Positions 6,424 through 60,729 of a stretch of 64,000 nt of DNA are shown in pieces. Source of the stretch: Chloroflexi bacterium ADurb.Bin180 (GTDB taxonomy: Bacteria > Chloroflexota > Anaerolineae > UBA2200); NCBI GenBank assembly GCA_002070215.1, contig MWCV01000007.1:1660-65659 (forward strand). The letters run 5' to 3'. A program made the position numbers and the translations under genes. Each line of letters opens with the position of its first letter. Position 1 is the stretch's first letter. The notes beneath the pieces were generated by a model. The model was given only the letters and a program-made list of their open reading frames with translations, was not told where the DNA came from and made no database searches.

Positions 6424-8706
6424 CTAGAACAAGGGCGGCAGGGTGAGGGCCGGGTGCCCCTTTTCCTCAAGGAAGGGCAGGAGCTGCTCCACCGAGGTGG
6501 CGACTCGCTCATCGGCAATCTTGTCGATCAGCGCCGCGTCGCCCTCGCGCTCCGCCACAGCCTTGAACTCTTCCTTCATGCTTTCCTTCAGGAAGGAGGA
6601 CATCCACACGACACGCTTAAAGCCGCCGTCAGATGACAGGAACTTGCGGCTGGTCAGATAGTACTTGCCGTGGCCCATTACGCCGGCGGTCTGTAGCCCA
6701 CCACCGGCCACGCCGGCGAGGGTGGAGAAGGTCATGCCGGCCGGTGTCATACTGGGATCCTCACGCGAGACAACCATAACTCCGTTGGCCTCGGGAATGA
6801 CCATTGCGATGCACTCAAAGCACCCGCAGGCAGTCATTGGGTTGTTCATGATGGAGTACATCGATACTTCCTGAACGGTCTGGTGTGAGGCCTGGCGCAC
6901 AAAGGCGTTGACCCCTTCAAACACCCCAAAGTTGGCGTCGATGCAGGCGCCCTTCTTGATCGGCTGATTGGGTCCGGTAGGGTTGATGTGGTTGGACGCT
7001 TTGCAGTCCAGCCAGTTGTAAGCGCCGCACAGGCCGAGCCGCTCGGGCGAGATCACGCAGACGTGATTGGGGGCAAAGCTCTGACACAGCGTGCAGCTAA
7101 AGAACTCGTCCACCGACTCATCGGTCATTCCAGCCAGGCGTTCATTGCGGAGATGGTAGGCCTGACGGGCCTTGGCCAACCACTCTTCCATCTTGGCCTT
7201 GTCCGTAAAGATGGTCACCTGCACCTTGTCCACGATGGCCCCAAAGTCGGCATGGAAGCGCGCATAAAGGATCTTGCCAAAGTGCTCCAGCTTGAAGCCT
7301 TTCTCGGCCGCCGCCTTGCTGACCCGGATCCAGGTGATGTCGCGCTGGCCGATGTGCTGGATGCCTGAAGCACCGTTGACAAAGTAGTGAATCTGCCTCT
7401 CCAGTACCGGCTCAAAGTCCTCCTGCATCTTGTGCCCGGCCACCTCAACCACGATGCCCATATCCATCGAGCCCTCTGCCGGCACGCTGTCGAACTCTGG
7501 TCCGACCACCGTGATCTTGCCGTCCTCCACCGACTCGAAGGGGGACATCTTGAGGTATTCAAAGCAGCGGCTGTTCTTGCCGCCGAACTCGACACGCATG
7601 TCGGCCTTGCGCACCCTTTCGCCTTCAAAGGCCGAACCGTAGGGCACCGGGATCGGCACCTCGGTGACCTTGATCTTGACTCCGCGGACCTCGATGGCGC
7701 GCTGTACCAGCTTTCGCGCGCGCTCGATGTCGTCCTTGCCCTCGATGTCATCAAAGGGCATGCTGATGACGTGCTCGTAGGGGGTGATGCCCGTGGGCAG
7801 GATTTGCGGGATGACCGTATCGGCGATGACGGGGAAGCCATAGTTGATCGCTCCGGCTGCCGTGGCATACTTCAGGTCGTCGACCTCGCCGAGAGCGATG
7901 GCAAAGGCAAACACGCGGGCCCGGTTGTACTGCAGTATCTCGCGCGGCATTCCTGGCTTCAGGCCGCCAAAGGTGAGTGCGCTGCGAGCGGCAAAACCGA
8001 GGGGATAGATGGTGGCGAGGGTGTCAGTGCCAAAGGGGATGATATAGGTGTCGTAACCCATCTCCACCCCGGCCTCCATCAACTGGTGAATGATGCTCCG
8101 CCCGTTGACGCTGCCGCTGAGGAACACCAGAATGCTGCGCTGCTGCAGTTCGCGCACCAACTGCACCGCCACTTCGGTGCTCTTGGCGCAGCCCAGCAGA
8201 GCGGCAAAGCCCGGCATGCGGCCGTCCACCAGTTGGATGCCCCAGGCCCGGAGCTGGATATCATCGATGGGGCCGTTCAGCCTCTTGCCGGCTTTTGCCA
8301 GCGGGTCGTTGCTGACAAAGTTGGCGGTGGGCACGTAGGTCCCGTCCCAGGTGATCTGCTGGGGTTCCACCCCGCGGGCGAAGCGAATGCCTTCGATGAT
8401 CTCCTCCGCCAGCAGTGTGGCCATACCGCAGTCCAGCGTCTCGCCAAGGTAAGGCACCCACATATTCTCCGGCGGAATGGGGTGCAGCAGACGCTTGGCG
8501 TCTTCCAGAGCCGGCACCATATCGGCCAGTTTCGCAATCTGGCGGCCCATAAAGGCCAGGTTGACCGGCAGGAAGTAGGCCGTGTTGGTGAACGCGACCG
8601 GGGTGTCAGGGCCCAGCTCGGCGATGGCCGCCTTGAGCATCGATTCGGCCTCGGCGACGACGGTATTGGCACCACGGATGGCTCGGGTTGCGATGAACCT
8701 CGACAT
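6424..8706 (-). CDS. acsB: Acetyl-CoA synthase (CODH/ACS beta subunit)
   Basis: ~760 aa with the A-cluster CGCFEC motif and the Cys cluster FSCTLCQSF...CVISPERLGLCG. Start MSRFIAT at 8706 is preceded by AAGGAG. Confidence 0.92.
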   Translation of the reverse strand: MSRFIATRAIRGANTVVAEAESMLKAAIAELGPDTPVAFTNTAYFLPVNLAFMGRQIAKLADMVPALEDAKRLLHPIPPENMWVPYLGETLDCGMATLLAEEIIEGIRFARGVEPQQITWDGTYVPTANFVSNDPLAKAGKRLNGPIDDIQLRAWGIQLVDGRMPGFAALLGCAKSTEVAVQLVRELQQRSILVFLSGSVNGRSIIHQLMEAGVEMGYDTYIIPFGTDTLATIYPLGFAARSALTFGGLKPGMPREILQYNRARVFAFAIALGEVDDLKYATAAGAINYGFPVIADTVIPQILPTGITPYEHVISMPFDDIEGKDDIERARKLVQRAIEVRGVKIKVTEVPIPVPYGSAFEGERVRKADMRVEFGGKNSRCFEYLKMSPFESVEDGKITVVGPEFDSVPAEGSMDMGIVVEVAGHKMQEDFEPVLERQIHYFVNGASGIQHIGQRDITWIRVSKAAAEKGFKLEHFGKILYARFHADFGAIVDKVQVTIFTDKAKMEEWLAKARQAYHLRNERLAGMTDESVDEFFSCTLCQSFAPNHVCVISPERLGLCGAYNWLDCKASNHINPTGPNQPIKKGACIDANFGVFEGVNAFVRQASHQTVQEVSMYSIMNNPMTACGCFECIAMVIPEANGVMVVSREDPSMTPAGMTFSTLAGVAGGGLQTAGVMGHGKYYLTSRKFLSSDGGFKRVVWMSSFLKESMKEEFKAVAEREGDAALIDKIADERVATSVEQLLPFLEEKGHPALTLPPLF

Positions 8707-8769
8707 AGTCTGTTTCTCCTTTGTCCGCACCGTCTTGGTGCGGCACGAGATATCGCAATGGTGCCCGGG

Positions 8770-10755
8770 CTAGACCCTGGCACTGTAGACGTTCAGTACC
8801 TCATCGTCGGCTTTCTCGAGCACCTTCAGGGTCACGGCGTCGCCGCTCTGTCCGTGGCGCTTGGCGTCATAGACCGGCAGGCCCAGTGCGGCACGCTTCT
8901 TGTCAATGTGCCTGAGGGCCCGGTCCACTGCCTCCTGTGCATCGGGCAGGAACTCGAGCCTCCCGCCCAGCCTGGCCTCCAGGCCGTCGCCCAGGAACTC
9001 GGTCACCTTCTTGCTGCCGGCGATGGGAGAGCGGCCGCCCATGATGGTGTAGACGCCAGAGCCGGCAAAGTAGCAGCCGATGGAAATGGCCTTCTCGCTC
9101 ATCCACTCTGGTGCAAAGCCAGCGCCCGGGAGGTCCGAGATGTCCTCGCCCAGGCCGCCTTCGCTGGCCATCTGGCTGAGCACGGTGAGAATGCGCGTAT
9201 TGTCGACGCAGCTTCCCAGATGGAGGACGGGCGGAATGCCGACCGTTTCGCAGATCTCGCGCAGGCCCGGTCCAGCGAACCTGGCTGCGTCAGGCGAGAG
9301 CAGCCCGTACTTGGCGCAGGCGATGGCGCCGCAGCCGGTCATCACCACCAGCACGTCGTTCTTGATCAGCTCCCGCACTGTGTACAGGTGGGTCTCGTCC
9401 TGGCACGTTCCGGCGTGGTTGCAGCCGACGACTCCCGCTGCTCCGCGCAGGCGGCCGCTGGCGACGGCGTCATTTAGGGGTCTGAACGAGCCGCGATACA
9501 TCCCGCCGAGGGCATAGTTGATGTACTCGTGCGAAAAGCCCGCTACCATTTGATCGATGTCGGTGGGGATGTGCGTCTGTTTGCGGTTCTTGTAATTATC
9601 GATGCCCATGCGCACCACCTGCTTGGCGATGTCGAGGGCACGGAGTTCGTCGAACTCGACGTGCGTCACGCCTTCGATGTGCGCTTTGGGCGAGGTTGTG
9701 ACTAGCTTGGTGTGGTAGTGCTGGGTTAGCGGTCCAAGGGCCTGCATGATGCACTGAATATCGACGACCATCAGGTCTACTGCCCCGGTGACAATGGCCA
9801 GCTCCTGGCTCAGGAAGTTGCCCAGCGAGGCGACACCCTGGCGCATCAACGTCTCATTCGAGGTACAGCACAGGCCACCGAGGTTGATGCCGGCAGCGCC
9901 CTTGGACTTGGCGTACTCAATGAGCTCTGGATCGTTGACCGCCACCAGGATCATCTCAGAGAGAATGGGCTCGTGACCGTGCACCACGACGTTGACCATG
10001 GTCTCGTCCAACGCTCCCAGGTTGGCCTTGGCTACCAGCGGGACGGGCGAGCCAAACAGGATATCGGTGATATCGGTGGACAGCATCGAGCCGCCCCAAC
10101 CGTCACCGAGCGAGACCCGGATCGCTGACATCAGCAGGGTCTCGTAGAATTGGTCGTTCCCGATGTGGGTCCGGTGCATGACGTCAACAATCTCGCGGTC
10201 GATGCCGCGCGGCATGATGCCGAGGTGACGCCAAATCTCCTGTCGCTTCTTCGGCGCGCGCTGCACATAGGCCAGCTCGCCAGTCTGCTGGCCGAACTGT
10301 GCCAGTGCTTTGGTGGCGACGTCCTTGGCTATCTCTATGGGCTCACGATCCTTGGTGGGCACATCCAGGTACTCGGCTACGGAGAGCAATTTGCGCACGT
10401 CGCGCAGCTCATAGTTTGGCGCGTGCCCTTCGGCCGCTGCCAGCAGGGTCAAGGCCATATCTCGGCCATGATCCGAGTGAGCGGCTGCTCCGGCGGCCGA
10501 CATGCGGGCGAAATTGCGGGCGATGATGGTCTCTGCGTCCGCTCCGCACACGCCCCGCTGTGGGCCCTCGCCGAACGGATCTACTCGGCACGGACCCTGG
10601 TGGCACACGCGGCAGCACAGGCCAAGCTTGCCGAACCCGCACTGTGGCTGCTGGGCTTCCAGGCGGTCCCAGGCGAGTTCGACTCCATCTTCGGCTGCAA
10701 TGGACAGCAGCTTTTGGATGGCGGGATCTTTCGACAGCCTACATGCATCGGTCAT
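8770..10755 (-). CDS. cooS: Anaerobic carbon monoxide dehydrogenase catalytic subunit
   Basis: 661 aa, N-terminal CGFGKLGLCCRVCHQGPCR B/D-cluster cysteine pattern of Ni-CODH. AGGAGG RBS 8 nt upstream of ATG at 10755. Confidence 0.92.
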   Translation of the reverse strand: MTDACRLSKDPAIQKLLSIAAEDGVELAWDRLEAQQPQCGFGKLGLCCRVCHQGPCRVDPFGEGPQRGVCGADAETIIARNFARMSAAGAAAHSDHGRDMALTLLAAAEGHAPNYELRDVRKLLSVAEYLDVPTKDREPIEIAKDVATKALAQFGQQTGELAYVQRAPKKRQEIWRHLGIMPRGIDREIVDVMHRTHIGNDQFYETLLMSAIRVSLGDGWGGSMLSTDITDILFGSPVPLVAKANLGALDETMVNVVVHGHEPILSEMILVAVNDPELIEYAKSKGAAGINLGGLCCTSNETLMRQGVASLGNFLSQELAIVTGAVDLMVVDIQCIMQALGPLTQHYHTKLVTTSPKAHIEGVTHVEFDELRALDIAKQVVRMGIDNYKNRKQTHIPTDIDQMVAGFSHEYINYALGGMYRGSFRPLNDAVASGRLRGAAGVVGCNHAGTCQDETHLYTVRELIKNDVLVVMTGCGAIACAKYGLLSPDAARFAGPGLREICETVGIPPVLHLGSCVDNTRILTVLSQMASEGGLGEDISDLPGAGFAPEWMSEKAISIGCYFAGSGVYTIMGGRSPIAGSKKVTEFLGDGLEARLGGRLEFLPDAQEAVDRALRHIDKKRAALGLPVYDAKRHGQSGDAVTLKVLEKADDEVLNVYSARV

Positions 10756-10853
10756 CTTCCAGTCCCTCCTGTAGAGATCCGGCGGGGTCGACCGCCTTCA
10801 GCCCCGGCGTTACGACCGCCGTTGAGTTCCGTTTCTTGCTTCATTTGGTTGCC

Positions 10854-11654
10854 CTACTTTCCCCGCTGGAAAGGAGAGGGCGTGGCCTTGAGCCCAACGA
10901 TCCAATCCGACGCCGCGATTTCGCGGCGGCAGTCCGGGCAGACTTCCAGCCAGGTCTTGATTAGCTCGAGCTTGTCAGCCAGTTTGTCCAGTTCAGCCTG
11001 CGGTGCAAAGTACTGGCCGCAGCGGACGCACTGACGTCTCGGCAGCGATGCGTTCCACTTGTCGAGCTTGCGTAGCTGCAGCACGTCCTGCACGTCGATG
11101 GCATGAGTGGGGCAGACAAAGGCGCAGGCTCCGCAGCCGATGCAGGCCTCTGATGGCTCGAGAAACGGCGTGGCCACCTCGCGTCCTGGCCCGCGCCCGA
11201 CAAAGCTGATGGCGCTCTCGCCGATCAGCTCCTCGCACACCCGCACGCATAGCCCGCAGAGGATGCAGTTCTCCTCTGGTTTGCGGGCTGCAAAGCGCGG
11301 CTGGCGCACTCCGAGTTCCTCGCCCAGCTCCTGGAGGAGCCTGACACCGGGGCACCTGGCCAGCAAGAGCTCGACCACGATGCGCCTGTTGCGCAGCACC
11401 CGGTCCGAGTGCGTTAATACCTCCAGTCCGTCTTCCCGCAGGTGGAACGTGCAGGAGGTGACAATTCGGCTGCGGTTGCCCCTCCTGATCTCCGCCAGGC
11501 ACAGGCGGCATGCGCCGTAGGGTGCCAGGGCCGGGTGGTAGCAGAGGGTAGGAATGTGAACCCCGATGGACCTGGCCGCTTCGAGCACAGTGGTGTCGAC
11601 GGGAACTCTGGCTTCATGACCATCGATGGTGGTGGTGACCAGCGTTTCGCCCAT
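10854..11654 (-). CDS. NuoG/HndD N-terminal-like iron-sulfur protein (2Fe-2S plus two 4Fe-4S, no catalytic domain)
   Basis: MGETLV start at 11654 overlaps TGA of the nuoF-like gene (ATGA). CYHPALAPYGACRLC 2Fe-2S pattern plus CILCGLCVRVC and CIGCGACAFVCP ferredoxin motifs. Confidence 0.75.
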   Translation of the reverse strand: MGETLVTTTIDGHEARVPVDTTVLEAARSIGVHIPTLCYHPALAPYGACRLCLAEIRRGNRSRIVTSCTFHLREDGLEVLTHSDRVLRNRRIVVELLLARCPGVRLLQELGEELGVRQPRFAARKPEENCILCGLCVRVCEELIGESAISFVGRGPGREVATPFLEPSEACIGCGACAFVCPTHAIDVQDVLQLRKLDKWNASLPRRQCVRCGQYFAPQAELDKLADKLELIKTWLEVCPDCRREIAASDWIVGLKATPSPFQRGK

Positions 11655-13507
11655 CACTCGACTCCTATGGCGCCGAACTTGCACACATCGGCGCAGAGTC
11701 CGCAACGGATGCATTTGGCCGGGTCAATGGCGTGGGGCTGCTTCTTCTCGCCGGCAATGGCTGACTCGGGACAGTTCCGGCGGCACACTCCGCAGCCGGT
11801 GCACTTGTCGGTAATCACAAAGTAGTGGATGAGGGCCCGGCAGACTCCGGCGGGGCACCTCTTTTCCTTGATATGCGCCTCGTACTCGCTGCGGAAATAG
11901 CGAATGGTCGACAGCACCGGGTTGGGGGCGGTCTTGCCCAGTTGACACAGGGCCGACTCTTGAGCCACGTGCCCCAGCTCCTCCAGCAGCTCGATATCCC
12001 CCTCTTGTCCTTGGCCCGCGCAGATGTCGGTGAGCGTCTCGAACATGCGCTGCACTCCCTCGCGGCAGGGAGTGCACTTGCCGCAGGACTCGTCGCGCGT
12101 AAAGTCCAGGAAATAGCGTGCCACGTCGACCATGCAGGTCCGGTCGTCCATCACGATCATTCCGCCGGAGCCCATCATCGAGCCGGCCTCGGTGAGCGCC
12201 TCATAGTCGACCGGCAGGTCGAGCAGCTCTTCGGGTATGCAGCCTCCAGAGGGCCCGCCGGTCTGTACGGCCTTGAACTTGCGGCCGCCCGGCACACCAC
12301 CACCGATGTCATTGATCAACTCACGCAGCCTGGTGCCCATCGGCACCTCAACCAGCCCGGTGTTGTTGATCTTGCCCACCAGCGAAAAGACCATGGTGCC
12401 TTTGCTCTTCTCCGTACCGATGGACGAGTACCATTCAGCACCGTGGTTGATGATGTGCGGCACGCTGGCCCAGGTCTTGACGTTGTTCAGGACCGTTGGC
12501 TTGTCCCACAGGCCACTCTCGGTGGCGTGGATGTCCTTGTCTCTGGGCTCGCCGACGCGACCCTCGACCGACCGCATCAGCGCGCTCGACTCGCCGCAGA
12601 CAAAGGCTCCACCGCCGCGGCTGATCTTGATCTCCAGGTCGAAACCAGAGCCGAGAATGTTCTTGCCCAGCAGACCCGCTTCTCTGGCCTGCTGCAGGGC
12701 GAGGCCGATATGCTTGACCGCCAAGGGGTATTCGTTGCGGACGTAGATATAGCCCGTGGAAGCGCCCACAGCGTAGGCGCCGATGATGATGCCTTCGAGA
12801 ACGCTGTGCGGGTTGGCCTCCAACAGGCTGCGGTCCATGAACGCGCCGGGATCGCCCTCGTCGGCATTGCAGATGACGTACTTGGGCTCTCCGTGGGCAG
12901 CGTGGGCCGACTCCCACTTGCGTCCGGTGGGAAAGCCTGCCCCGCCTCTGCCGCGCAATCCCGAGCGCTTGACGATGTCAATGACCGTATCGGGTGACAA
13001 ACCGGTGAGCACCTTGCTCAGGGCCGAGTACCCGCCCAGGGCGACATAATCTTCGATCGAGGTCGGGTCGATCCTGCCGTTATTGGCGTACAGGATGCGC
13101 TGCTGGCGCTTGTAGAACGGGATGTCGTCCTCGTGAGCGATGGCCTCGCCGCTATTCGGGTCGGTGTACAGGAGCCGGGAGACGATCTCCCCTTTGCGCA
13201 GGGTGGTAGCGATGATCTCCTGGACGTCCTCTGCCTTCACCCGCTGGTAAAAGACCTTTTGCGGGTAGATGACGACGATGGGACCGCGCTCGCAAAAGCC
13301 GTGGCATCCGGTGGCCTTGAGAGCGACAGTGTGGTCCAAACCGGCGGCGGCCATCTCACTCTGAAACGCATCCAGGACCGCTCTGGCGCCGGAGGCAGCG
13401 CAGCCTGTCGTGCTGCACACTGCTACCAGGGGCCGTGCCGGGTCGCGCTCCTTCAGCAGCGATTGTCGCCATTGGTCCAGTTCGGAGGCGGTGAGTAGCT
13501 TGTTCAC
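11654..13507 (-). CDS. NuoF/HndC/HoxF-like NAD(P)H-binding flavoprotein with thioredoxin-like 2Fe-2S N-domain and C-terminal 2x[4Fe-4S]
   Basis: GGAGFPTG and NADEGDPGAF FMN/NADH motifs, ESCGKCTPCREG N3-cluster motif, and C-terminal CTGCGVCRRNCP / CIRCGLCADVC ferredoxins. Confidence 0.9.
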   Translation of the reverse strand: MNKLLTASELDQWRQSLLKERDPARPLVAVCSTTGCAASGARAVLDAFQSEMAAAGLDHTVALKATGCHGFCERGPIVVIYPQKVFYQRVKAEDVQEIIATTLRKGEIVSRLLYTDPNSGEAIAHEDDIPFYKRQQRILYANNGRIDPTSIEDYVALGGYSALSKVLTGLSPDTVIDIVKRSGLRGRGGAGFPTGRKWESAHAAHGEPKYVICNADEGDPGAFMDRSLLEANPHSVLEGIIIGAYAVGASTGYIYVRNEYPLAVKHIGLALQQAREAGLLGKNILGSGFDLEIKISRGGGAFVCGESSALMRSVEGRVGEPRDKDIHATESGLWDKPTVLNNVKTWASVPHIINHGAEWYSSIGTEKSKGTMVFSLVGKINNTGLVEVPMGTRLRELINDIGGGVPGGRKFKAVQTGGPSGGCIPEELLDLPVDYEALTEAGSMMGSGGMIVMDDRTCMVDVARYFLDFTRDESCGKCTPCREGVQRMFETLTDICAGQGQEGDIELLEELGHVAQESALCQLGKTAPNPVLSTIRYFRSEYEAHIKEKRCPAGVCRALIHYFVITDKCTGCGVCRRNCPESAIAGEKKQPHAIDPAKCIRCGLCADVCKFGAIGVE

Positions 13508-14022
13508 GTTGCTGCCTCCCGCTCGGCCGCTGCTTTGGCTTCCGAACCTGACGCGGCGCTCGTTTCGCCGCTCCGATAGGCTTTGAGCACCCCGTCCACC
13601 TTGCTCACGGTCATCCGGCCGTGATATTCGCCATCCACCACGACCACGGGGCCGAGCGCACAGGCGCCGAGGCAGTTCACTGTTTCCAGACTGAACTGCT
13701 GGTCAGTGGTAGTTCCGCCGGGGTTCACACTGAGGGTTCGCTCCAGTTGCTCGAGGATCCGGTCGGCGCCGCGAACGTGGCACGCCGTCCCCAGGCAGAC
13801 CTGGATCAGGTGCTTGCCTCTGGGTACCAGACTAAAGGCACGATAAAAGTTGGCCACGCTGTAGACACGGCTGGGAGGAATATCGAGCAGGCAGGCCACA
13901 CGGCGAAGGGCGTCTTTCGGCAGATAGTTGTAGGCTACCTGCACTTCCTGGAGAACGGCGATGAGCATGGAAGGGTCAGCGCCATTGCGCTGCACTGCCT
14001 CGTCTACCTTGGTCAGGTCCAT
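13504..14022 (-). CDS. NuoE/HndA-like 2Fe-2S thioredoxin-fold subunit
   Basis: CLGTACHVRG...CLGACALGPVVVV 24-kDa subunit cysteine pattern; overlaps nuoF-like start by 4 nt. Confidence 0.85.
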   Translation of the reverse strand: MDLTKVDEAVQRNGADPSMLIAVLQEVQVAYNYLPKDALRRVACLLDIPPSRVYSVANFYRAFSLVPRGKHLIQVCLGTACHVRGADRILEQLERTLSVNPGGTTTDQQFSLETVNCLGACALGPVVVVDGEYHGRMTVSKVDGVLKAYRSGETSAASGSEAKAAAEREAAT

Positions 14023-14025
14023 GGC

Positions 14026-14553
14026 CTACCCCTGGCCGCTGGAGACCGGCAACTTGCCGGCCAGAACCTCGCGGGCTGTGCTGAGGCGCTTGTCGCGGGC
14101 GATGTCCTCCACGGTCTTGAAACGCAGGCAGTGAGTGGGGCAGGCAGCGACGCAGGCCGGCTCTAGGCCCTGACTCTGCCGGTCCACGCAGAGGTCGCAC
14201 TTGAGCACGACCTTGTCCGACTTGCGCATGCGCGCCGCCCCAAAGGGACACACCATGACGCACCACATACAACCGATGCACTTGTCGCGGTCGGCCAGCA
14301 CCCAGCCCTCGTCGCCCTCCTTGGTCAGGCAGTGAGTGGGGCAAACGCGCACGCAGGGGGCGTCATCGCAGTGCCGGCACTGGAGCGGGATGGGCATCTG
14401 TTCCACGTACTCGACCATAACGCGGTAACCGGGCCGGGGAACTTCGGTGATGGCTTGCACCAGGTCCTTCGAGGCCGAGTGCTCGACCGCGCAGGCGATC
14501 TGGCAAGCCTTGCAGCCCAGGCACTTTTCTACCTCGCAGATGATCCTCTTCAT
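14026..14553 (-). CDS. cooF: CooF-like 4Fe-4S ferredoxin (CODH electron-transfer subunit)
   Basis: Four CxxCxxCxxxCP-type motifs (CLGCKACQIAC, CRHCDDAPCVRVCP, CIGCMWCVMVCP, CDLC...CVAACP). Start MKRIICEV at 14553 with GGAGGA RBS; the ORF extension to 14646 is unsupported. Confidence 0.8.
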   Translation of the reverse strand: MKRIICEVEKCLGCKACQIACAVEHSASKDLVQAITEVPRPGYRVMVEYVEQMPIPLQCRHCDDAPCVRVCPTHCLTKEGDEGWVLADRDKCIGCMWCVMVCPFGAARMRKSDKVVLKCDLCVDRQSQGLEPACVAACPTHCLRFKTVEDIARDKRLSTAREVLAGKLPVSSGQG

Positions 14554-32373: not shown

Positions 32374-33333
32374 ATGATCGAGTTCGTCTTCCTCGGGACC
32401 TCCGCCTCCGCGCCATCCGTCGAACGAGGGCTCTCTGCGGCGATGGTGATGCACGATGACCAGCGCTTTCTGGTGGACTGCGGAGAAGGCACCCAGAGGC
32501 AGATCCTGCGCAGCGGCCTGGGCTTTAAACGCCTGGACAAGGTCCTGCTGACCCACGGCCACCTGGACCATATCCTGGGGCTGGGAGGTCTGGTTTCGAC
32601 GTTCGCCCGCTGGGAGGCAGGTACGGATCTGTCTATCTATGCCGGGGGCTGGGCTCTCGAGCGCGTGCGCGACCTGATGAACGTAGTGCTGCGCGGCGGA
32701 GAGGTACAACTGAGGATCGACTACCAGGAGCTCAAGCCCGGCGTCATCTGGAAGCGCCGCGGCCTGACCGTGCGCGCCTTCCCTGTGGTGCACCGGGGGC
32801 CGGGCTGTTTTGGATTTGTCTTTGAAGAGGACAGCCACCGGCCGTTCCTGGCCGAAGAGGCCGAGCGGCTCGGCGTGCCCTCTGGCCCGGAGCGCCGGCT
32901 GCTGGTCAGCGGACAGGCAATCGCCCTGGCCGACGGCCGCGTTATTCAGGCCGAACAGGTGCTGGGTCCGCTCATCCCTGGCGTCAAGCTGGCCTGGGTG
33001 GGCGATGCGGCAGAGACGGACAGCCTGGTCGAGCACGTCGCCGGCGCGGATGCCCTGGTCATCGAGGCCACCTACCTGGACGTAGAAGCGGATATGGCCC
33101 AGCGCTTTGGTCACCTTACCGCGTCGCAGGCGGCCACCCTGGCCTATGAGGCCGGCGTGAAAAAGCTCTATCTCACGCACATCTCGCGGCGCTATTCTGC
33201 CAGCCAGGCCAAAGCTGAGGCCGAGCCGATCTTTCCCAACGTGGTCGTGGCCAGAGATCTGGATTCGTTCCGCGTGTGCCGCACGGATGAAGCAGGGCTG
33301 GAAGCACCCGCTGCCAGCCAGGAGAAACAATAG
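32374..33333 (+). CDS. rnz: Ribonuclease Z (tRNA 3' endonuclease, MBL fold)
   Basis: LGTSASAPS...LLTHGHLDH metallo-beta-lactamase motif, ~319 aa, RNase Z-like C-terminal HxSxRY. Confidence 0.85.
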   Translation: MIEFVFLGTSASAPSVERGLSAAMVMHDDQRFLVDCGEGTQRQILRSGLGFKRLDKVLLTHGHLDHILGLGGLVSTFARWEAGTDLSIYAGGWALERVRDLMNVVLRGGEVQLRIDYQELKPGVIWKRRGLTVRAFPVVHRGPGCFGFVFEEDSHRPFLAEEAERLGVPSGPERRLLVSGQAIALADGRVIQAEQVLGPLIPGVKLAWVGDAAETDSLVEHVAGADALVIEATYLDVEADMAQRFGHLTASQAATLAYEAGVKKLYLTHISRRYSASQAKAEAEPIFPNVVVARDLDSFRVCRTDEAGLEAPAASQEKQ

Positions 33334-33335
33334 CG

Positions 33336-34679
33336 GTGAGCCTGCGTTCTTGCCTCGCGACCCTGGAACAAACCGGTGAGCTGCAGACCGTCCAGCAGGA
33401 GGTCGACCCGACACTGGAGATGGCCCGTGTTATCTCTGCGCTGGACGAGCGGCCGGTGCTCTTCCCTTGGGTCAAGGGATCACGCTTCGCTGTCGTCGCC
33501 GGGTTCAATGCGCGTCGCGAGCACGTGGGCCAGTGCCTGGGCGTGCCGCGGCAGCAGCTCATCGCCGCTATGCGTTCGGCATTGCAGCACCCTGTGCCTC
33601 CGCCGATGGTGACCTCAGCGCCGTGCCAGGAGGTGGTAGAGGACCAGGTCAACCTGTTCGACCTGCCGGTGCTGCTTCACCTGCCAATGGACGGCGGGCA
33701 CTACATCTCGGCCGGAGTGGTCATCGTCCGCGACCGCGACCTGGGGCGCAATATGAGCTTTCATCGCCTGCTGCGCCTGGATGAGCGGCGGCTGGGCGCG
33801 CGCCTGGTGGAGGGCAGGGGTACGCACGCGGCACTCGCCAAAGCGGGCGGCAAGCTGGAGTTGGCCATTTGCATCGGCAACTCGCCGGCTGTGCTGCTCG
33901 CCGCTGCCACCAGCCCGGCGCCGGGAGTCGACGAGCTGGCTATTGCCAATGCCCTGCAGCCGACGCCGCTGGTCAAGTGCCGCACGGTCGACCTGGAGGT
34001 GCCCGCAGAGGCCGAGTTTGTGCTGGAGGGCCGCTTCACGGGCGAGCTGGTGACCGAGGGGCCCTTCCTGGACCTGACGGAAACGATGGACCGGGTGCGG
34101 CAGCAGCCGGTGCTCGAAGTGACCTGCCTCACGCACCGGCGCGAGGCCATCTATCAGGCCCTGCTGCCGGGCGGGCTGGAGCACAAGCTGCTGATGGGCA
34201 TGCCCCGCGAACCCACGATCTTTGACGAGGTGAGCCGGGTCTGCGAGTGCAAGGACGTGCTGCTCACGCCTGGCGGGGGTGCCTGGCTTCACGCCGTGGT
34301 CCAGATTCACAAGCGAGGCCCCGACGACGGGCGCCTGGCTCTGGAGGCGGCGTTCCGCGGGCACGGCTCACTCAAGCACGCCTGCGTAGTGGATGATGAT
34401 GTCGACATCTCTGACCCGCGCCAGGTCGAATGGGCCATCGCCACGAGGGTGCAGGCGGACACGAGCATCGTCATTTGGCCGGATCAGCCAGGCAGCTCGC
34501 TGGATCCCTCGGCGCACCACGAACCAGGTGTCAGGTCGCGGACGGCCAAGATGGGCGTTGACGCCACCATTCCCTGGCGCAAACCAGACGGCGAGCTGCG
34601 CACCGCAAAAGAGCGGGCCCAGTTCCGCCGCAGCGGCTATGAGCCAGTCTCACTGGACCAGTACAGGCTGCACTGGTAA
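33336..34679 (+). CDS. UbiD-family prFMN-dependent decarboxylase (candidate trans-anhydromevalonate 5-phosphate decarboxylase)
   Basis: 447 aa UbiD-like; clustered with aconitase-X subunits and isopentenyl phosphate kinase, as in the archaeal alternative mevalonate pathway. Confidence 0.7.
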   Translation: MSLRSCLATLEQTGELQTVQQEVDPTLEMARVISALDERPVLFPWVKGSRFAVVAGFNARREHVGQCLGVPRQQLIAAMRSALQHPVPPPMVTSAPCQEVVEDQVNLFDLPVLLHLPMDGGHYISAGVVIVRDRDLGRNMSFHRLLRLDERRLGARLVEGRGTHAALAKAGGKLELAICIGNSPAVLLAAATSPAPGVDELAIANALQPTPLVKCRTVDLEVPAEAEFVLEGRFTGELVTEGPFLDLTETMDRVRQQPVLEVTCLTHRREAIYQALLPGGLEHKLLMGMPREPTIFDEVSRVCECKDVLLTPGGGAWLHAVVQIHKRGPDDGRLALEAAFRGHGSLKHACVVDDDVDISDPRQVEWAIATRVQADTSIVIWPDQPGSSLDPSAHHEPGVRSRTAKMGVDATIPWRKPDGELRTAKERAQFRRSGYEPVSLDQYRLHW

Positions 34680-34739
34680 CACTTGTGGGGGTTTGCGCCG
34701 GCCAGTTGACTATCGCCACGCTTTGCATAGAGTACAGCC

Positions 34740-34961
34740 ATGCGCAAACTGACCAAACGTCTGTTGTGGGGCCTGGCCCTGATCTTTGCCTTTGTCATCA
34801 TCTGGCAGAAGGTGCACTTTGTGGTGGTCATTCACGCCACCTTCTGGCAGCTCCTGCTCCTGTTTTTGGGGCTGGCCGCGGGCATTTACCTCGTTTTTGA
34901 GGTCCTCTTCGGCGATTCGGACCCCGGTCCGCGGGGCGGTGCGGCCCGCGACGAGTCATGA
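34740..34961 (+). CDS. Small hydrophobic membrane protein (hypothetical)
   Basis: 73 aa with two predicted TM helices; stop overlaps start of acnX-large (ATGA). Confidence 0.4.
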   Translation: MRKLTKRLLWGLALIFAFVIIWQKVHFVVVIHATFWQLLLLFLGLAAGIYLVFEVLFGDSDPGPRGGAARDES

Positions 34962-36214
34962 ACCTGACTCAGGCCGACCAGGCAATGCTTGATGGCTCCT
35001 TCGGCCCGGCGGTGCAAAAGGCCATGCGTATGGTGGCGGCGCTGGGCAAGATCTTCGGGGCCAACGAGCTGGTGCCTGTTGGCAGCGCTCAGGTCTCGGG
35101 AGTGAGCTACAAGAACCTCGGCGACGCTGGCCTCGAGTTCCTCGAAGACTGGGCAGCGCAGGGGGCGCGGGTTCGTGTGCCCGCACTGATGAATCCGGCC
35201 GGCATGGATCTGGAGCGCTGGCGCGAGATGGGCATTTCGGCCGAGTTCGCGGCCAGACAGCAGCGGGTGGTGGCTGCGCTCACGACGATGGGTGTCACCG
35301 CGACCTGCACATGCACCCCCTATCTGGTCGGCTATGAGCCTGGAGCCGGTGAACATCTGGCCTGGAGCGAGTCCTCTGCCGTCAGCTACGCGAACTCGGT
35401 GCTGGGCGCGCGCACCAACCGGGAGGGCGGGCCTGGCGCGCTGGCTGCGGCCATCGTTGGTCGCACGGCGGCCTATGGCCTGCATCTGCCCGAACGCAGA
35501 AAAGCCACGCATCTCATCGATGTCTCCTGTGCCCTGGCCGGTCCCGCCGACTATGGTGCCCTGGGCTACTGGGTGGGTGGACAGGTTGCGGACGGAGTGC
35601 CCTACTTTCGCTTGCACGCGCCGGGGCGTAGGCCAGAGCAGGAAGAGTTGATGGCTCTGGGTGCGGCGATGGGAGCGAGCGGCGCAGTAGCCCTCTATCA
35701 CATCGAGGGCGTAACGCCCGAAGCCGAGTTCGCCCGGTCGGCGCTGAAGGATTGCGCTCCAACCAGGCTGGTGGTGAGGGACCTGGCTGCGGCCTTTGCG
35801 GCCCTCAACTCGCCGCTGGAGCACATTGATTTCGTGAGCCTCGGCTGCCCACACAGCACCCTGGCCGACATAGAGCGAGTGGCGGCGCTGGTCAAAGGGC
35901 GTCGCGTGCGGGCCACCCTGTGGGTTACTACCTCGAGAGGCGTCGCGGCCCGGGCCAGAGAGAGCGGAGCCGTGGATACGATTGAGGCGTCTGGCGCGCG
36001 CGTGTTCGCGGATACCTGCCTGGTGGTTGCACCAGTTGAGGAGTTGGGCTTTCGCGCGATGGCCACCAACTCGGCCAAAGCGGCGTTCTACGCGCCGACT
36101 CACTCGAGAATCGAGAGGCGCTTTGGCACGCTTGAGCAGTGCGTAGCTGCCGCGCTGAGCGGTGAGTGGCCGCCACAGGACGCGGTCGCTGGAAGTGGCT
36201 CATGCTGCGCCTGA
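34958..36214 (+). CDS. Aconitase X catalytic (large) subunit; candidate phosphomevalonate dehydratase large subunit
   Basis: 418 aa AcnX/DUF521-like; followed by the AcnX swivel-domain small subunit and IPK. Confidence 0.7.
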   Translation: MNLTQADQAMLDGSFGPAVQKAMRMVAALGKIFGANELVPVGSAQVSGVSYKNLGDAGLEFLEDWAAQGARVRVPALMNPAGMDLERWREMGISAEFAARQQRVVAALTTMGVTATCTCTPYLVGYEPGAGEHLAWSESSAVSYANSVLGARTNREGGPGALAAAIVGRTAAYGLHLPERRKATHLIDVSCALAGPADYGALGYWVGGQVADGVPYFRLHAPGRRPEQEELMALGAAMGASGAVALYHIEGVTPEAEFARSALKDCAPTRLVVRDLAAAFAALNSPLEHIDFVSLGCPHSTLADIERVAALVKGRRVRATLWVTTSRGVAARARESGAVDTIEASGARVFADTCLVVAPVEELGFRAMATNSAKAAFYAPTHSRIERRFGTLEQCVAAALSGEWPPQDAVAGSGSCCA

Positions 36215-36588
36215 TTGGACGCGTGATCCAGCCAGGCGAGGCGGAAGGAGAGGCGCTGGTCTCCTCTGCTCCCGTTGGTTTCCTGGGCGGGGTGGACCCG
36301 GACACGGGTATCGTTATCGAGGCGGGACATCCGTTGGTCGGGCAGTGCGTGGCCGGCAAGGTGCTGGTGTTCCCCACGGGCAAAGGCAGTACCGTTGGCT
36401 CCTACACACTCTACCGCCTGGCCACGCGCGGGCTGGCCCCCTGCGCTCTGATCAATGCCCGCAGCGAGGCCATTGTAGCGGTGGGAGCCATTATGGCCGA
36501 GATCCCGATGCTTGACCAGGTCGATATCTCGTTATTCCACAGCGGCGATCACGTGCGCATCAACGGCGAGGAGATTCTCGTTGGATGA
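36202..36588 (+). CDS. Aconitase X swivel-domain (small) subunit; candidate phosphomevalonate dehydratase small subunit
   Basis: ~128 aa DUF126-like (MLRLIGRVIQPGEAEGEALVS...VLVFPTGKGSTVGSY). ATG at 36202 overlaps the large-subunit end by 13 nt. Confidence 0.65.
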   Translation: MLRLIGRVIQPGEAEGEALVSSAPVGFLGGVDPDTGIVIEAGHPLVGQCVAGKVLVFPTGKGSTVGSYTLYRLATRGLAPCALINARSEAIVAVGAIMAEIPMLDQVDISLFHSGDHVRINGEEILVG

Positions 36589-37390
36589 GCTGCTGTTTGT
36601 CAAACTGGGCGGATCTCTGATCACGCGCAAGTCCGCCGCCAGTGCAGCCAGGCCGCGGGTCATCCGCCGGCTGGCGCACGAGATCCGCGGCGCGCTCGAT
36701 GAGGCGCCTGGCCTCAGGCTGGTGCTGGGGCATGGCAGCGGCTCGTTCGGGCATGTGGTGGCGCACCGCTATGCGGTGCAAAGCGGCTGCCACGACTGGC
36801 TGGGCTATGCCCTCACCAGCGCGGCGGCAGCCCGGCTCAATCGCATCGTCGTCGACGCGTTTCTGGAAGAGGGGGTGCCAGTGGTGGCGTTGCAGCCCTC
36901 GGCCTCCGCGCGCTGCCGGGAAGGCAAGCTGGTGGACCTGGCCTGGCAGCCGGTGGCCGAGCTGCTCCAGCATCAGCTCGTGCCCTTGGTCTATGGCGAT
37001 GTCGCCCTGGATGAGGTATGGGGCTCGACGATCATCTCTACGGAGACGATCTTTGCCTGTCTGGCGCATCACCTCCAGCCGACGCGTGTGCTGCTGGTGG
37101 GCGAGGTGCGCGGGGTCTACACGTCCGACCCCCATCTCGACGCGCGGGCGAGGCTGATCACGTACATCGCTGCCGGGCGACAGATGCCCGAATCTGTCGA
37201 CATCGCCGGCTCCAACGCGGTGGACGTGACCGGCGGCATGCACAGCAAGGTCGATATTATGGCCGCGTTGGTTCGTGAACTACCAGGACTGCTGGTTCAG
37301 TTCTTGTCCGGATCTCGCCCGGGGTTGCTGCGCCGCTCGCTGCTCGACCGCGAGTTGAACCCCGGCACTTGTCTCACTGGCCGTCAGTGA
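36581..37390 (+). CDS. Isopentenyl phosphate kinase (amino-acid kinase family)
   Basis: LFVKLGGSLIT and LGHGSGSFGH motifs of IPK. Proposed TTG start at 36581 has GAGGAG 9 nt upstream and overlaps the acnX-small stop; the ORF frame opens at 36512. Confidence 0.7.
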   Translation: MDELLFVKLGGSLITRKSAASAARPRVIRRLAHEIRGALDEAPGLRLVLGHGSGSFGHVVAHRYAVQSGCHDWLGYALTSAAAARLNRIVVDAFLEEGVPVVALQPSASARCREGKLVDLAWQPVAELLQHQLVPLVYGDVALDEVWGSTIISTETIFACLAHHLQPTRVLLVGEVRGVYTSDPHLDARARLITYIAAGRQMPESVDIAGSNAVDVTGGMHSKVDIMAALVRELPGLLVQFLSGSRPGLLRRSLLDRELNPGTCLTGRQ

Positions 37391-44658: not shown

Positions 44659-45486
44659 GTGGGTCTGGTAAAGGACAAAACCGGCCGGCTGCACATCGAG
44701 ACGCAGTTGATGGCCGAATCGCTGATGGACAAGGCACTGCTCGAAAAGACAGAGACGGAGAATATCTTTCGCCCGCTGCCCGAACTGAACGTGATCAAGC
44801 TGGGCGGACAGAGCATCATCGACCGGGGCGCCCAGGTAGTGCTGCCGCTCATAGCAGAGATCGTCGCTGCCAGGGCCAAGCACCAGATGCTCATCGTGAC
44901 GGGCGGCGGAACTCGGAGCCGGCATGCCTATGCTATCGCGTTGGACCTGGGCATGTCCACCGGCATTCTGGCCAAACTGGGCCAGAGCATCAGCGAGCAG
45001 AACGCGCTGATGATCAGCACACTGCTCGCTCCGCACGGCGGGGTCAAGATCGGTCACGACGAAGTGGTGCAACTGCCGGCGTACCTGGCACTGGGCATCA
45101 TTCCGGTGATGCATGCCATGCCTCCCTACGGGCTGTGGGAAGAGCCGGCGGAGAAGGGCCGCATCCCGCCGCACCGCACCGATGCCGGGGCGTTTCTGAC
45201 GGCCGAGGTGCTCGGCGCCAGACGCTGCATCCTGGTCAAGGACGAAAAGGGCCTGTTCACGGCTGATCCCAAGAAGGATCCCCAAGCCAGGTTCATTCCT
45301 GAGATCGAAGTCAATGAGCTGCTGGCGATGGACCTGGCCGACCTGGCCGTTGAACGGACCATGCTTCAGGCACTGGCGAATGCCCGCACCGCCAAAGAGG
45401 TGCTGATCATCAACGGCCGCGAAAAGGGCAACCTGACCAAGGCGCTGCAGGGCAAGAATCCGGGGACGAGGATCTTCAAAGCGTAA
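44659..45486 (+). CDS. Molybdenum storage protein (MosA/MosB)-like amino-acid-kinase family protein
   Basis: LNVIKLGGQSIIDRGAQVVLPLIAEI, RIPPHRTDAGAFL and ARFIPEIE closely mirror motifs I recall from Azotobacter MosA/MosB. AAGGAGG RBS before GTG at 44659; directly follows mogA. Confidence 0.6.
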   Translation: MGLVKDKTGRLHIETQLMAESLMDKALLEKTETENIFRPLPELNVIKLGGQSIIDRGAQVVLPLIAEIVAARAKHQMLIVTGGGTRSRHAYAIALDLGMSTGILAKLGQSISEQNALMISTLLAPHGGVKIGHDEVVQLPAYLALGIIPVMHAMPPYGLWEEPAEKGRIPPHRTDAGAFLTAEVLGARRCILVKDEKGLFTADPKKDPQARFIPEIEVNELLAMDLADLAVERTMLQALANARTAKEVLIINGREKGNLTKALQGKNPGTRIFKA

Positions 45487-59421: not shown

Positions 59422-60729
59422 CTACATTCCTCCCTTGCCAAACGGGTCGACCCAGGTCTCGAGCGCGGCCTTGAGCTCCGGGTGCTCTTTGGCTGCGTCC
59501 TCGAGGGGCCTCCCGCTCATCGTCGCGTCGATGGCCTGGCGGAAGGCCTTGGCGCCAGCCACCGGCCCCTGCGGATGAGCATGGATGCCGCCTCCGGAGC
59601 CAATGACAATGTCCGGTCCAAGGTCCTTCATCACTGACGGCACCATCGCCGGAGTGATGCCGCCGCTGGGCATGGGGAAGGTGGGGCGCAGGTTGTAGAG
59701 AGGGAAGCTCAGGTTGCGCGCCACGCTGACGAACTTGTCCGGGATCACCGGAGCCTTGCCATAGGGCGCGGGGAACACGATGATGTCGGCGCCGGCCAGG
59801 CGCGGCAGCTTGCCGAGCACAATGTGCGAGCTCATCCCGTGCCACTCTGACTCGTAGAGCGCCCCCGCCAGGTCCATATGGGCCAGGATGGGCACGTTGA
59901 GCGACTTGTCCTCGGCCAGGGCCCGCAGCACCGGAAAGCCAGCCACCAGATAGTTGATCATGAGCGCGTTGGCGCCCAGCTCCACCGCGCGGTGGGCGTT
60001 CTCGAATACCTTGGGGATCTCGTCGGTCACATTGACCGTGTACAGCGTGTGCTCGCCCGTTTCCTCAAAGACCTCTTTCTCAGCCTGCATATACAACTTG
60101 ACGCGCGATTCGATGTCGCAGAAGCAGGCGTTGGCCAGCAGTTCGTCATCTTTGATGATGTCGCAGCCGCCAAGAGCAGCCGCTTTGAAGAGCTTGCCCC
60201 CCAGCTCGGGCGGGTAGCCGGTGCACGGCTTGATCATGTTATTGAGCAGCGGACGCTTCGGAACGCCCAGTGCCTTGCGAATGCCGGGGACGCCAAAACG
60301 CGGCCCCTGAAAGCCGTCGACATACTGCTTCGGAAAACGCACGTCAACCAGCTTTAATCGGCCGGCCATCGAGATGTTGCCGATCACCGTGGTCAGCATC
60401 ATCGGGATCTGCGGACCAAAGTTGACCACCGGAAAGGCGAGCTGGATCAGGTACTGCCGGTCGGTCACCGAGGTCGGAACAGACCACTCATAGTCGGGGA
60501 TCTCGTAGACGCCAATGACCTTAGCTACGTGCTTCCGGCGCACCTCTGGCGTCTCCCCGGGCACCGGCACCCAGGTTCCCGTGGACTGCTCGATGGCCAG
60601 AGCGGGTGCCATCTTGGCCACCGGAAAGCCGTTGGGGAAGGAAACAGCAAAGGTGCCGATTACGTAATCCTCATAGTCGATTCCGTCGGGCAAAGCGATA
60701 GGCAGTGACTCGACATCCATCTTGGGCAT
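59422..60729 (-). CDS. RuBisCO large-subunit family protein (RuBisCO-like protein / form III-like)
   Basis: GGCDIIKDDE matches GGLDFTKDDE (K201/D203/E204), and STGTWVPV and GGGIHAHP are conserved. KPKLG is KPCTG, so K177 is replaced by Cys. 435 aa. Confidence 0.75.
   Translation of the reverse strand: MPKMDVESLPIALPDGIDYEDYVIGTFAVSFPNGFPVAKMAPALAIEQSTGTWVPVPGETPEVRRKHVAKVIGVYEIPDYEWSVPTSVTDRQYLIQLAFPVVNFGPQIPMMLTTVIGNISMAGRLKLVDVRFPKQYVDGFQGPRFGVPGIRKALGVPKRPLLNNMIKPCTGYPPELGGKLFKAAALGGCDIIKDDELLANACFCDIESRVKLYMQAEKEVFEETGEHTLYTVNVTDEIPKVFENAHRAVELGANALMINYLVAGFPVLRALAEDKSLNVPILAHMDLAGALYESEWHGMSSHIVLGKLPRLAGADIIVFPAPYGKAPVIPDKFVSVARNLSFPLYNLRPTFPMPSGGITPAMVPSVMKDLGPDIVIGSGGGIHAHPQGPVAGAKAFRQAIDATMSGRPLEDAAKEHPELKAALETWVDPFGKGGM

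Follow-up and report, generated by a model that had tools for sequence, protein, structure and literature searches.

A bacterial gene cluster predicted to encode the lower half of an archaeal-type mevalonate pathway in an Anaerolineae-like member of the Chloroflexota

The archaeal mevalonate (MVA) pathway, which saves one ATP per isopentenyl diphosphate (IPP) made, was regarded as exclusive to archaea until 2024, and a paper of 2023 calls it "unique to archaea" (PMC10040528). Its presence in a member of the Chloroflexota, Candidatus Promineifilum breve, is the subject of Kanno et al. (2024, Appl Environ Microbiol 90:e0110624), as that report is cited in PMC13001223 and PMC12547664. Here we describe a cluster of five genes in a 64-kb stretch of contig MWCV01000007.1 from Chloroflexi bacterium ADurb.Bin180 (the whole stretch is called the window below, and all coordinates are positions in it). 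Judged from gene content and protein sequence, the cluster very probably encodes the lower half of an archaeal-type MVA pathway in an anaerobic, Anaerolineae-like Chloroflexota bacterium. The archaeal-type pathway in Chloroflexota is already published, and the window is one further example, confirmatory in kind. The work on P. breve reportedly found the phosphomevalonate dehydratase (PMDh) and the trans-anhydromevalonate 5-phosphate decarboxylase (AMPD) of that organism to be active and proposed horizontal transfer. For the archaeal PMDh, AMPD and isopentenyl phosphate kinase (IPK), known from Aeropyrum pernix, Methanosarcina mazei and also Thermococcus kodakarensis, the reference is Hayakawa et al. 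(2018).

Enzyme assignments within the cluster

All five open reading frames (ORFs) lie on the + strand, in the order and at the places that an earlier note on this DNA had given them: a UbiD-family protein, a small membrane protein, the large and small AcnX subunits (AcnX-L and AcnX-S), and IPK. That note read the set as the route from mevalonate 5-phosphate (MVA5P) through trans-anhydromevalonate 5-phosphate and isopentenyl phosphate to IPP, a reading with which the family matches, the conserved residues, the synteny and the linkage to MVA genes in relatives all agree.

The large, catalytic AcnX subunit (34958..36214, 418 aa), of type IIb and predicted to be PMDh-L, matches PF04412 with 502 bits over profile positions 1-399 of 400. 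Its swivel domain (domain 4) is encoded separately, by a 128-aa gene (36202..36588) that overlaps the 3' end of AcnX-L; this small subunit, the predicted PMDh-S, matches PF01989 with 114 bits and NF003046 with 163.5 bits (cutoff 163). The best PDB match of AcnX-L is T. kodakarensis 7cnr_A (E = 4e-100, 339 bits), with the A. tumefaciens hydroxyproline dehydratase at 242 bits, and the best matches of AcnX-S are 7cnr_B (TK1248, 128.8 bits) and AF0055 (114 bits), with type I AcnX at 69 bits. Both subunits fall below the cutoff of 700 set for NF051439, the C3LHyp-dehydratase equivalog (322 bits for AcnX-L, 86 bits for AcnX-S).

The [4Fe-4S] cluster of PMDh has its Cys ligands at sites A, 1 and B (C122, C297 and C356 in ApPMDh; C110, C283 and C342 in the T. 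kodakarensis enzyme, Tk), with none at site C (PMC10040528), whereas the cluster of type I AcnX uses Cys at sites A, B and C (for the discriminating residues, see PMC10040528 and PMC8184944). The MVA5P contacts of the Tk large subunit in structure 7CNS are G48, V49, S50, N53, N79, E129, S130, S131, K361, Y365 and the non-polar A47, to which a Thr of the small subunit is added (PMC8184944). In the window protein, C119, C297 and C354 align to Tk C110, C283 and C342, and site C is V356. Ten of the eleven contacts in AcnX-L are identical to Tk, the exception being the A47 column, where the window has the Ser that is also the majority residue among archaeal homologues (22/34). Across 43 Chloroflexota and 34 archaeal homologues the Fe-S Cys columns are invariant and the MVA5P-contact columns conserved. 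At Tk positions 47, 49, 50, 53 and 131 the window reads S, V, S, N and S, as against D, C, I, S and N in A. tumefaciens. The GKGSTVGSY loop of AcnX-S, in which lie the Thr that binds the carboxylate and the Val next to it (Tk Thr63/Val64), is identical to that of Tk. A neighbor-joining (NJ) tree without sequences of types IIa and IIc-f, and with an unstable root position, places AcnX-L beside archaeal sequences. Because the 7cnr scores, the failed match to NF051439, the Cys pattern, the MVA5P contacts and the GKGSTVGSY loop agree, the pair is of the PMDh type, with a predicted MVA5P-dehydrating activity. The choice between PMDh and a dehydratase of cis-3-hydroxy-L-proline, on which the earlier note had placed its own test, falls to PMDh by score, by Cys pattern and by substrate contacts.

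The UbiD-family protein (33336..34679, 447 aa), a predicted AMPD, belongs to a family of prenylated-FMN-dependent decarboxylases; it matches all three Pfam domains of the family (UbiD_N, UbiD, UbiD_C) and passes TIGR00148 with 345.9 bits (cutoff 244.85). Its segments RNMSFHR and EGPFLD conform to N-x-x-x-x-R and E-G-P-F-x-(D/E), which we take, from Fdc1 and UbiD, to be the catalytic motifs. To our knowledge there is no AMPD structure and no curated AMPD model. The nearest solved structure, 6H6V/6H6X (283 bits, 42% identity), is presumably HmfF, an identification of our own, as the PDB record says only UbiD-type decarboxylase. Our comparators, chosen by gene neighbourhood, were 11 archaeal UbiDs that adjoin AcnX-L/S in the genome scan described below; with these the window protein shares 36-58% identity. 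In an NJ tree rooted on AnInD, the PMDh-linked UbiDs form a clade that leaves out HmfF (bootstrap 95/100), and the Chloroflexota UbiDs nest within the PMDh-linked archaeal clade (84/100), beside a Bathyarchaeota sequence. Three motifs mark the clade, EGPF[LIV]D[LIV]TxTxDxxRxQ, SWLHAVV and GSSLDPS, and the window UbiD has all three; HmfF and AnInD have EGPF[GA]E and other residues in these places, HmfF reading EGPFGE and GNRLDPS.

The last gene of the cluster (36581..37390, 269 aa) encodes a protein of the amino-acid-kinase fold that passes the archaeal IPK equivalog NF040647 (IPPK_Arch) with 161.1 bits against a cutoff of 120, the next model, FomA, scoring 37.9 bits. IPKs fill the first seven places among the PDB matches (71-126 bits), the fosfomycin kinase FomA coming next at 44 bits, and the motifs KLGGS, HG(S/A)GSFGH (HGSGSFGH in the window) and DVTGG are kept.

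Read together, these assignments suggest the following scheme. MVA5P would be made by a mevalonate kinase (MVK) encoded elsewhere in the genome and would be dehydrated to trans-anhydromevalonate 5-phosphate by a heterodimeric AcnX of type IIb (PMDh-L plus PMDh-S), whose [4Fe-4S] cluster would be held by C119, C297 and C354, with the free iron binding the C3 hydroxyl. The phosphate of MVA5P would sit on G48-V49-S50, N53 and N79, and its carboxylate on S139, K374 and the Thr of the small-subunit loop. The UbiD-family AMPD, using prenylated FMN (prFMN) from a UbiX encoded outside the window, would then decarboxylate the alpha,beta-unsaturated acid to isopentenyl phosphate, which IPK would phosphorylate to IPP, at a cost of one ATP less than in the classical pathway.

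Gene linkage, conservation and rival explanations

The earlier note had the genes linked throughout by start/stop overlaps, and this is true of the last four: the small ORF (34740..34961) and AcnX-L overlap by 4 nt (ATGA), AcnX-L and AcnX-S by 13 nt, and AcnX-S and IPK by 8 nt. It does not extend to the first gene, since a gap of 60 nt separates UbiD from the small ORF. The start of AcnX-S is likely the ATG at 36202, as in the gene calls on contigs with identical proteins, and that of IPK is likely the TTG at 36581, which has GAGGAG 7 nt upstream and gives the 269-aa gene called on those same contigs. The small ORF and AcnX-L would be translationally coupled because the stop of the one overlaps the start of the other; more widely, the arrangement suggests that the cluster is probably transcribed as a unit and that translation is coupled all the way from the small ORF to IPK. 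Only 2 nt lie between the stop of an RNase Z gene (32374..33333, +) and the UbiD start, so that RNase Z is probably in the same transcription unit as UbiD, and the unit possibly begins there. Scans for promoters and terminators gave nothing above chance in the cluster, the one promoter-like site being a weak one at 34706-34733, within the 60-nt gap that follows UbiD, and Rfam and tRNA scans had no match inside the cluster. Downstream, RseP follows 86 nt after IPK, and the window has no PMD homologue.

Relatives were collected in an alignment scan with AcnX-L, at one genome per species, which returned at least 595 matches; synteny in the loci cited below by L numbers was judged by tblastn. These best 80 of at least 595 comprise about 46 bacterial sequences, almost all from Chloroflexota (49-65% identity), and 34 archaeal ones (45-55%). 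Among the matches listed, the nearest species representatives are metagenome-assembled genomes (MAGs) of Anaerolineales, at 63-65% identity, and the best protein relatives of AcnX-L are likewise from Anaerolineae/Chloroflexota MAGs, in agreement with the bacterial origin proposed for this DNA.

The order UbiD-AcnXL-AcnXS-IPK is intact in at least 12 Chloroflexota loci (L005-L009, L013, L014, L016, L019, L021, L024 and L048), and UbiD-AcnXL-AcnXS is found in three more (L010, L029, L033) and in at least eight archaeal genomes, UbiD standing directly 5' of AcnX-L/S in Bathyarchaeia, Nitrososphaerales, Methanomethyliaceae, Micrarchaeota, Altiarchaeales and Methanosalsum. The flanks recur as well, with RNase Z directly 5' of UbiD in six loci (L005, L013, L016, L019, L024, L048) and RseP within a few kb downstream in ten. 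At closer range, an AcnX-L protein identical to that of the window occurs on MAG GCA_029547125.1, in two JGI metagenomes and in one ENA assembly, with the same neighbours each time, and the cluster proteins are 98-100% identical across independent metagenomes. A Caldilineales-like group of Chloroflexota has AcnX-L without adjacent partners, with all ligand residues kept.

Genes for other steps of isoprenoid synthesis also adjoin the string in relatives. UbiX is directly 5' of UbiD in L007, L008 and L021 (NF004685, 193 bits), MVK is 5' of UbiD in L014 (TIGR00549, 207 bits), and a DMD/PMD homologue comes right after IPK in L007 and L008 (TIGR01240, 252 and 219 bits). That MVK, HMGR, IDI2, UbiX and PMD adjoin the same string in one relative or another argues strongly, and independently of the protein sequences, for a role of the cluster in mevalonate metabolism.

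Some of these loci deserve description in their own right. L007 (7996-14217 of CAVOXA010000003.1) and L008 (about 8107-14194 of DAOUGI010000009.1) both run UbiX-UbiD-AcnXL-AcnXS-IPK, then the DMD/PMD homologue and NifU, and on this gene content would encode both the archaeal-type and the haloarchaeal-type route from MVA5P to isopentenyl phosphate in one string. An MVA operon that is almost complete, with the lower half of archaeal type, is IDI2-HMGR-MVK-UbiX-UbiD-AcnXL-AcnXS-IPK in L063 (4802-12414 of JBDRPD010000054.1, a contig of 144 kb), from a MAG labelled Elusimicrobiota; the neighbouring genes did not settle the taxonomy of the contig, and Elusimicrobiota is to be read as a bin label. 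Two further bins carry labels from outside the Chloroflexota, L044 (Cytophagia, GC 41%) and L070 (Pseudomonadota).

Several points weigh against our assignment of the cluster. The pathway seen here is its lower half only: queries with UbiX, MVK, PMD, IDI2 (the type-2 IDI), HMGR and thiolase gave no tblastn match better than E = 0.02 in the 64 kb, with which Pfam agrees, and HMG-CoA synthase and type-1 IDI had no Pfam match among the roughly 56 ORFs of the window. For UbiX, which the earlier note had already missed there, Pfam found no Flavoprotein/UbiX match in these ORFs, and tblastn with two UbiX proteins gave nothing below E = 0.1. The NF003046 cutoff is exceeded by AcnX-S by only 0.5 bit. 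HmfF, at 42% identity, is as close to the window UbiD as are some of the archaeal AMPD-like proteins, so that similarity by itself is indecisive, and it is the gene context, the place in the tree and the motifs on which the choice of the AMPD substrate depends. In addition, the Chloroflexota UbiDs read R-x-V-E-x-R-G-T-[H/D/E] (residues about 156-167 in the window protein) where HmfF and most archaeal members have R-x-x-P-R-H; the altered segment is shared by one Bathyarchaeota homologue and by that of L063. In view of UbiD structures we suspect the His of R-x-x-P-R-H to be a Mn ligand, and the altered segment may be a change at a metal or prFMN-phosphate ligand. Lastly, some relatives also carry PMD, and the route is possibly redundant in part of the lineage.

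The lack of UbiX within 64 kb raises the question of whether the cluster is a non-functional or repurposed remnant, its UbiD left without cofactor and the pathway idle, the more so as UbiX lies directly 5' of UbiD in L007, L008, L021, L063 and many archaeal loci. UbiX is, however, often unlinked from UbiD, and the close relative L005 also has none within 21 kb; none of the four enzymes is truncated relative to its profile, and each keeps its catalytic and ligand residues; and the near identity of the proteins in independent metagenomes, together with a synteny that persists across 50-65% protein divergence and so implies purifying selection on the cluster, makes a remnant extremely improbable. 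The AcnX family leaves room for a different suspicion, that of a catabolic cluster unrelated to isoprenoids and built around an AcnX of the hydroxyproline-dehydratase type. NF051439 is the only NCBIfam AcnX equivalog with a match here, and the nearest solved UbiD is a furandicarboxylate decarboxylase. Two-subunit bacterial AcnX proteins with hydroxyproline activity do exist (PMC8184944). Yet the NF051439 score is far under its cutoff, the similarity to T. kodakarensis PMDh is about 100 bits above that to type I AcnX, the hydroxyproline-contact residues are replaced by the PMDh set at Tk 47, 49, 50, 53 and 131, and the cysteines follow PMDh, site 1 being Cys and site C Val. As IPK adjoins the AcnX pair, relatives add MVK, HMGR, IDI2 and UbiX, and no proline-catabolism genes lie near the cluster, we consider a catabolic role very improbable.

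A redundant or conditional second route would be compatible with the enzyme assignments themselves: the main supply of IPP would come from a PMD (haloarchaeal-type) pathway or the methylerythritol phosphate (MEP) pathway, and the Fe-S route would serve under anoxia or energy limitation only. The DMD/PMD homologue directly after IPK in the UbiX-UbiD-AcnXL-AcnXS strings of L007 and L008 speaks for it, as do the PMD-based pathways of the Chloroflexota Roseiflexus and Anaerolinea thermophila (PMC9254496). In the window, on the other hand, it is RseP and not PMD that follows IPK, and there is no adjacent PMD in the closest relatives L005 and L006, nor in L013, L016, L024 and L048, so that we think this arrangement unlikely for the present organism.

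Returning to the cluster as an archaeal-type lower MVA pathway, the earlier note had taken its presence in a bacterium to support horizontal acquisition or ancient sharing. That alternative stands, save for a recent import: because synteny is held at 50-65% identity and the GC content is unremarkable (0.65-0.66 in the cluster, about 0.63 in the window), the cluster has long been resident in the bacterial lineage and is not a recent import. We claim no direction of transfer. In an AcnX-L tree rooted on type I, monophyly of the Chloroflexota was recovered in 6 of 100 replicates, the long type I outgroup attaching inside the bacterial cluster; in the unrooted bootstrap, intrusion of archaeal sequences into that cluster was rare (3, 2 and 2 of 80 replicates for the top three intruders).

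The small membrane protein and the surroundings of the cluster

The small ORF encodes a protein of 73 aa with two predicted membrane helices and without a family match. Its 20 homologues are 59-81 aa long, none with a Pfam domain, and an alignment of 14 sequences (up to 38% identity) has nine invariant positions; it is a real, conserved gene, with a core of about 60 aa, of a subset of the Chloroflexota. The gene is directly 5' of AcnX-L in L001-L006, L022, L026 and L043 (at about 9799-9981 in L005, about 1033-1224 in L006, 413-598 in L022, 9785-9970 in L026 and 488-688 in L043), there are tblastn matches in L018 and L046, and it was not found in any archaeal locus examined. It ends at or just before the AcnX-L start both in the close relatives and in the Caldilineales-like loci with a lone AcnX-L. 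Because it is thus found also upstream of an AcnX-L that lacks UbiD, AcnX-S and IPK neighbours, the association is with PMDh-L, and our guess is that the protein is a lineage-specific partner or membrane anchor of that subunit.

Compared with L001 (8497-8742), the small ORF of the window lacks an 8-aa repeat near its C-terminus (34925-34961), where it reads GGAA-RDES and L001 reads GGAAPSSRGGADRDES. This difference from the otherwise 98-100% identical L001-L004 is a strain-level indel in the non-membrane tail. An 81-aa version is called in relatives; in the window the corresponding upstream extension is interrupted by a stop codon, and it is the 8-aa indel near the C-terminus that accounts for the difference.

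The rest of the window reads as an unremarkable stretch of bacterial chromosome. Upstream of the cluster lie HSP20, Lon and the RNase Z gene already mentioned, a tRNA 3' endonuclease and not a pathway enzyme, which matches Pfam Lactamase_B_2 and falls below the cutoffs of both RNase Z models (TIGR02651, 261.9 bits against 292.95; NF000801, 250.1 bits against 252). Further upstream, at 113-24279 on the - strand, is a Wood-Ljungdahl (carbonyl-branch) cluster with RACo, two CdhD-family corrinoid Fe-S subunits, ACS, CODH, NuoF-like and ferredoxin subunits, formate-THF ligase (FTHFS), FolD, an FTCD_C cyclodeaminase-like protein and MTHFR. These genes point to an anaerobic member of the Chloroflexota, possibly acetogenic or acetate-oxidising, and because they fit an anaerobe, an oxygen-sensitive Fe-S dehydratase is plausible in this host.

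On the other side, RseP is followed by a Moco riboswitch (RF01055, 40464-40584, +; 63 bits, gathering score 36), which is 5' of moaA (40660) and of moaC-moaD-moaE-moeA-mog. Right after these molybdopterin genes comes a second gene of the amino-acid-kinase fold (44659-45486, +), kept also in L001-L004, that reaches 65 bits with the archaeal UMP kinase model (cutoff 158); by score it is not an IPK paralogue, and it might have to do with the storage of Mo/W or with cofactor metabolism. A 435-aa homologue of the RuBisCO large subunit (59422-60729, -), probably a form III/IV RuBisCO-like protein, has no small subunit nearby and adjoins an FGGY sugar kinase and a class III aminotransferase. ABC transporters are also encoded in the window.

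Significance and comparison with known systems

By itself the window opens no new question; it adds an anaerobic lineage with a Wood-Ljungdahl cluster and a conserved gene order. A wider claim can be put forward only tentatively: the archaeal-type lower pathway may be no one-off of Ca. P. breve and may instead be an operon of long standing that Anaerolineae-type Chloroflexota have widely retained and that other bacterial phyla possibly have too (L063), a view that we hold as a possibility and not as the expected outcome. A conserved Chloroflexota operon would bear on how isoprenoid pathways moved between the domains and on the proposed evolutionary order of the MVA pathway variants, and the Chloroflexota loci are a place to seek a mesophilic bacterial PMDh and AMPD for ATP-saving terpenoid engineering. 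The less charted parts are the conserved small membrane protein and the loci with both PMD and PMDh/AMPD. If the guess made above is right, a membrane protein of about 60 aa coupled to PMDh-L, as partner or anchor of the dehydratase, would be a bacterial novelty; if genomes such as L007 and L008 do encode both routes, they would likewise be new for bacteria, as living examples of a stage intermediate between the pathways of archaeal and of haloarchaeal type. In the open-access literature we found no discussion of the breadth of the cluster across the Anaerolineae, of the small membrane protein, or of loci with PMD and PMDh/AMPD, and these may be covered elsewhere.

Two of the systems with which the locus might be confused share its protein families and differ in the residues that matter. 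Type I AcnX hydroxyproline dehydratase has the same Pfam families, AcnX and AcnX_swivel, and the same fold as the window pair, but its domains are fused in a single chain, which has a [2Fe-2S] cluster on Cys A, B and C and a pyrrolidine-binding residue set, whereas the window has separate subunits, Cys at A, 1 and B with Val at site C, and a phosphate-binding set. HmfF, the 2,5-furandicarboxylate decarboxylase of Pelotomaculum thermopropionicum, has the same three-domain architecture as the window UbiD and differs in its EGPFGE and GNRLDPS motifs and in branching outside the PMDh-linked clade (95/100).

The haloarchaeal-type MVA pathway (PMD plus IPK), found in Roseiflexus castenholzii and Anaerolinea thermophila, shares with the predicted route of the window the phylum, the substrate MVA5P, and the end steps through isopentenyl phosphate and IPK. 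It uses one ATP-dependent decarboxylase of the GHMP fold, where the window, which has no PMD homologue, would use an Fe-S dehydratase followed by a prFMN decarboxylase, both independent of ATP.

Closest of all are the archaeal enzymes and loci and the published Chloroflexota case. The archaeal MVA enzymes (PDB 7CNR/7CNS for PMDh) belong to the same three families, AcnX-L being 45-55% identical, with the Fe-S Cys and 10/11 MVA5P contacts the same; the differences are the R-x-V-E-x-R-G-T segment of the Chloroflexota UbiDs and the separate cluster that bacterial AcnX-L sequences form in unrooted trees. The order UbiD-AcnXL-AcnXS is likewise common to the window and to archaeal MVA loci (Bathyarchaeia, Nitrososphaerales, Methanomethyliaceae, Micrarchaeota, Methanosalsum), from which the window differs in its bacterial host and in the additional small membrane-protein gene between UbiD and AcnX-L. 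Ca. P. breve, so far as the papers citing its description convey, is likewise a member of the Chloroflexota with PMDh (AcnX type IIb), AMPD (UbiD family) and IPK, for which horizontal transfer has been invoked; it is a different organism, and the pathway of the window is one predicted from its genes.

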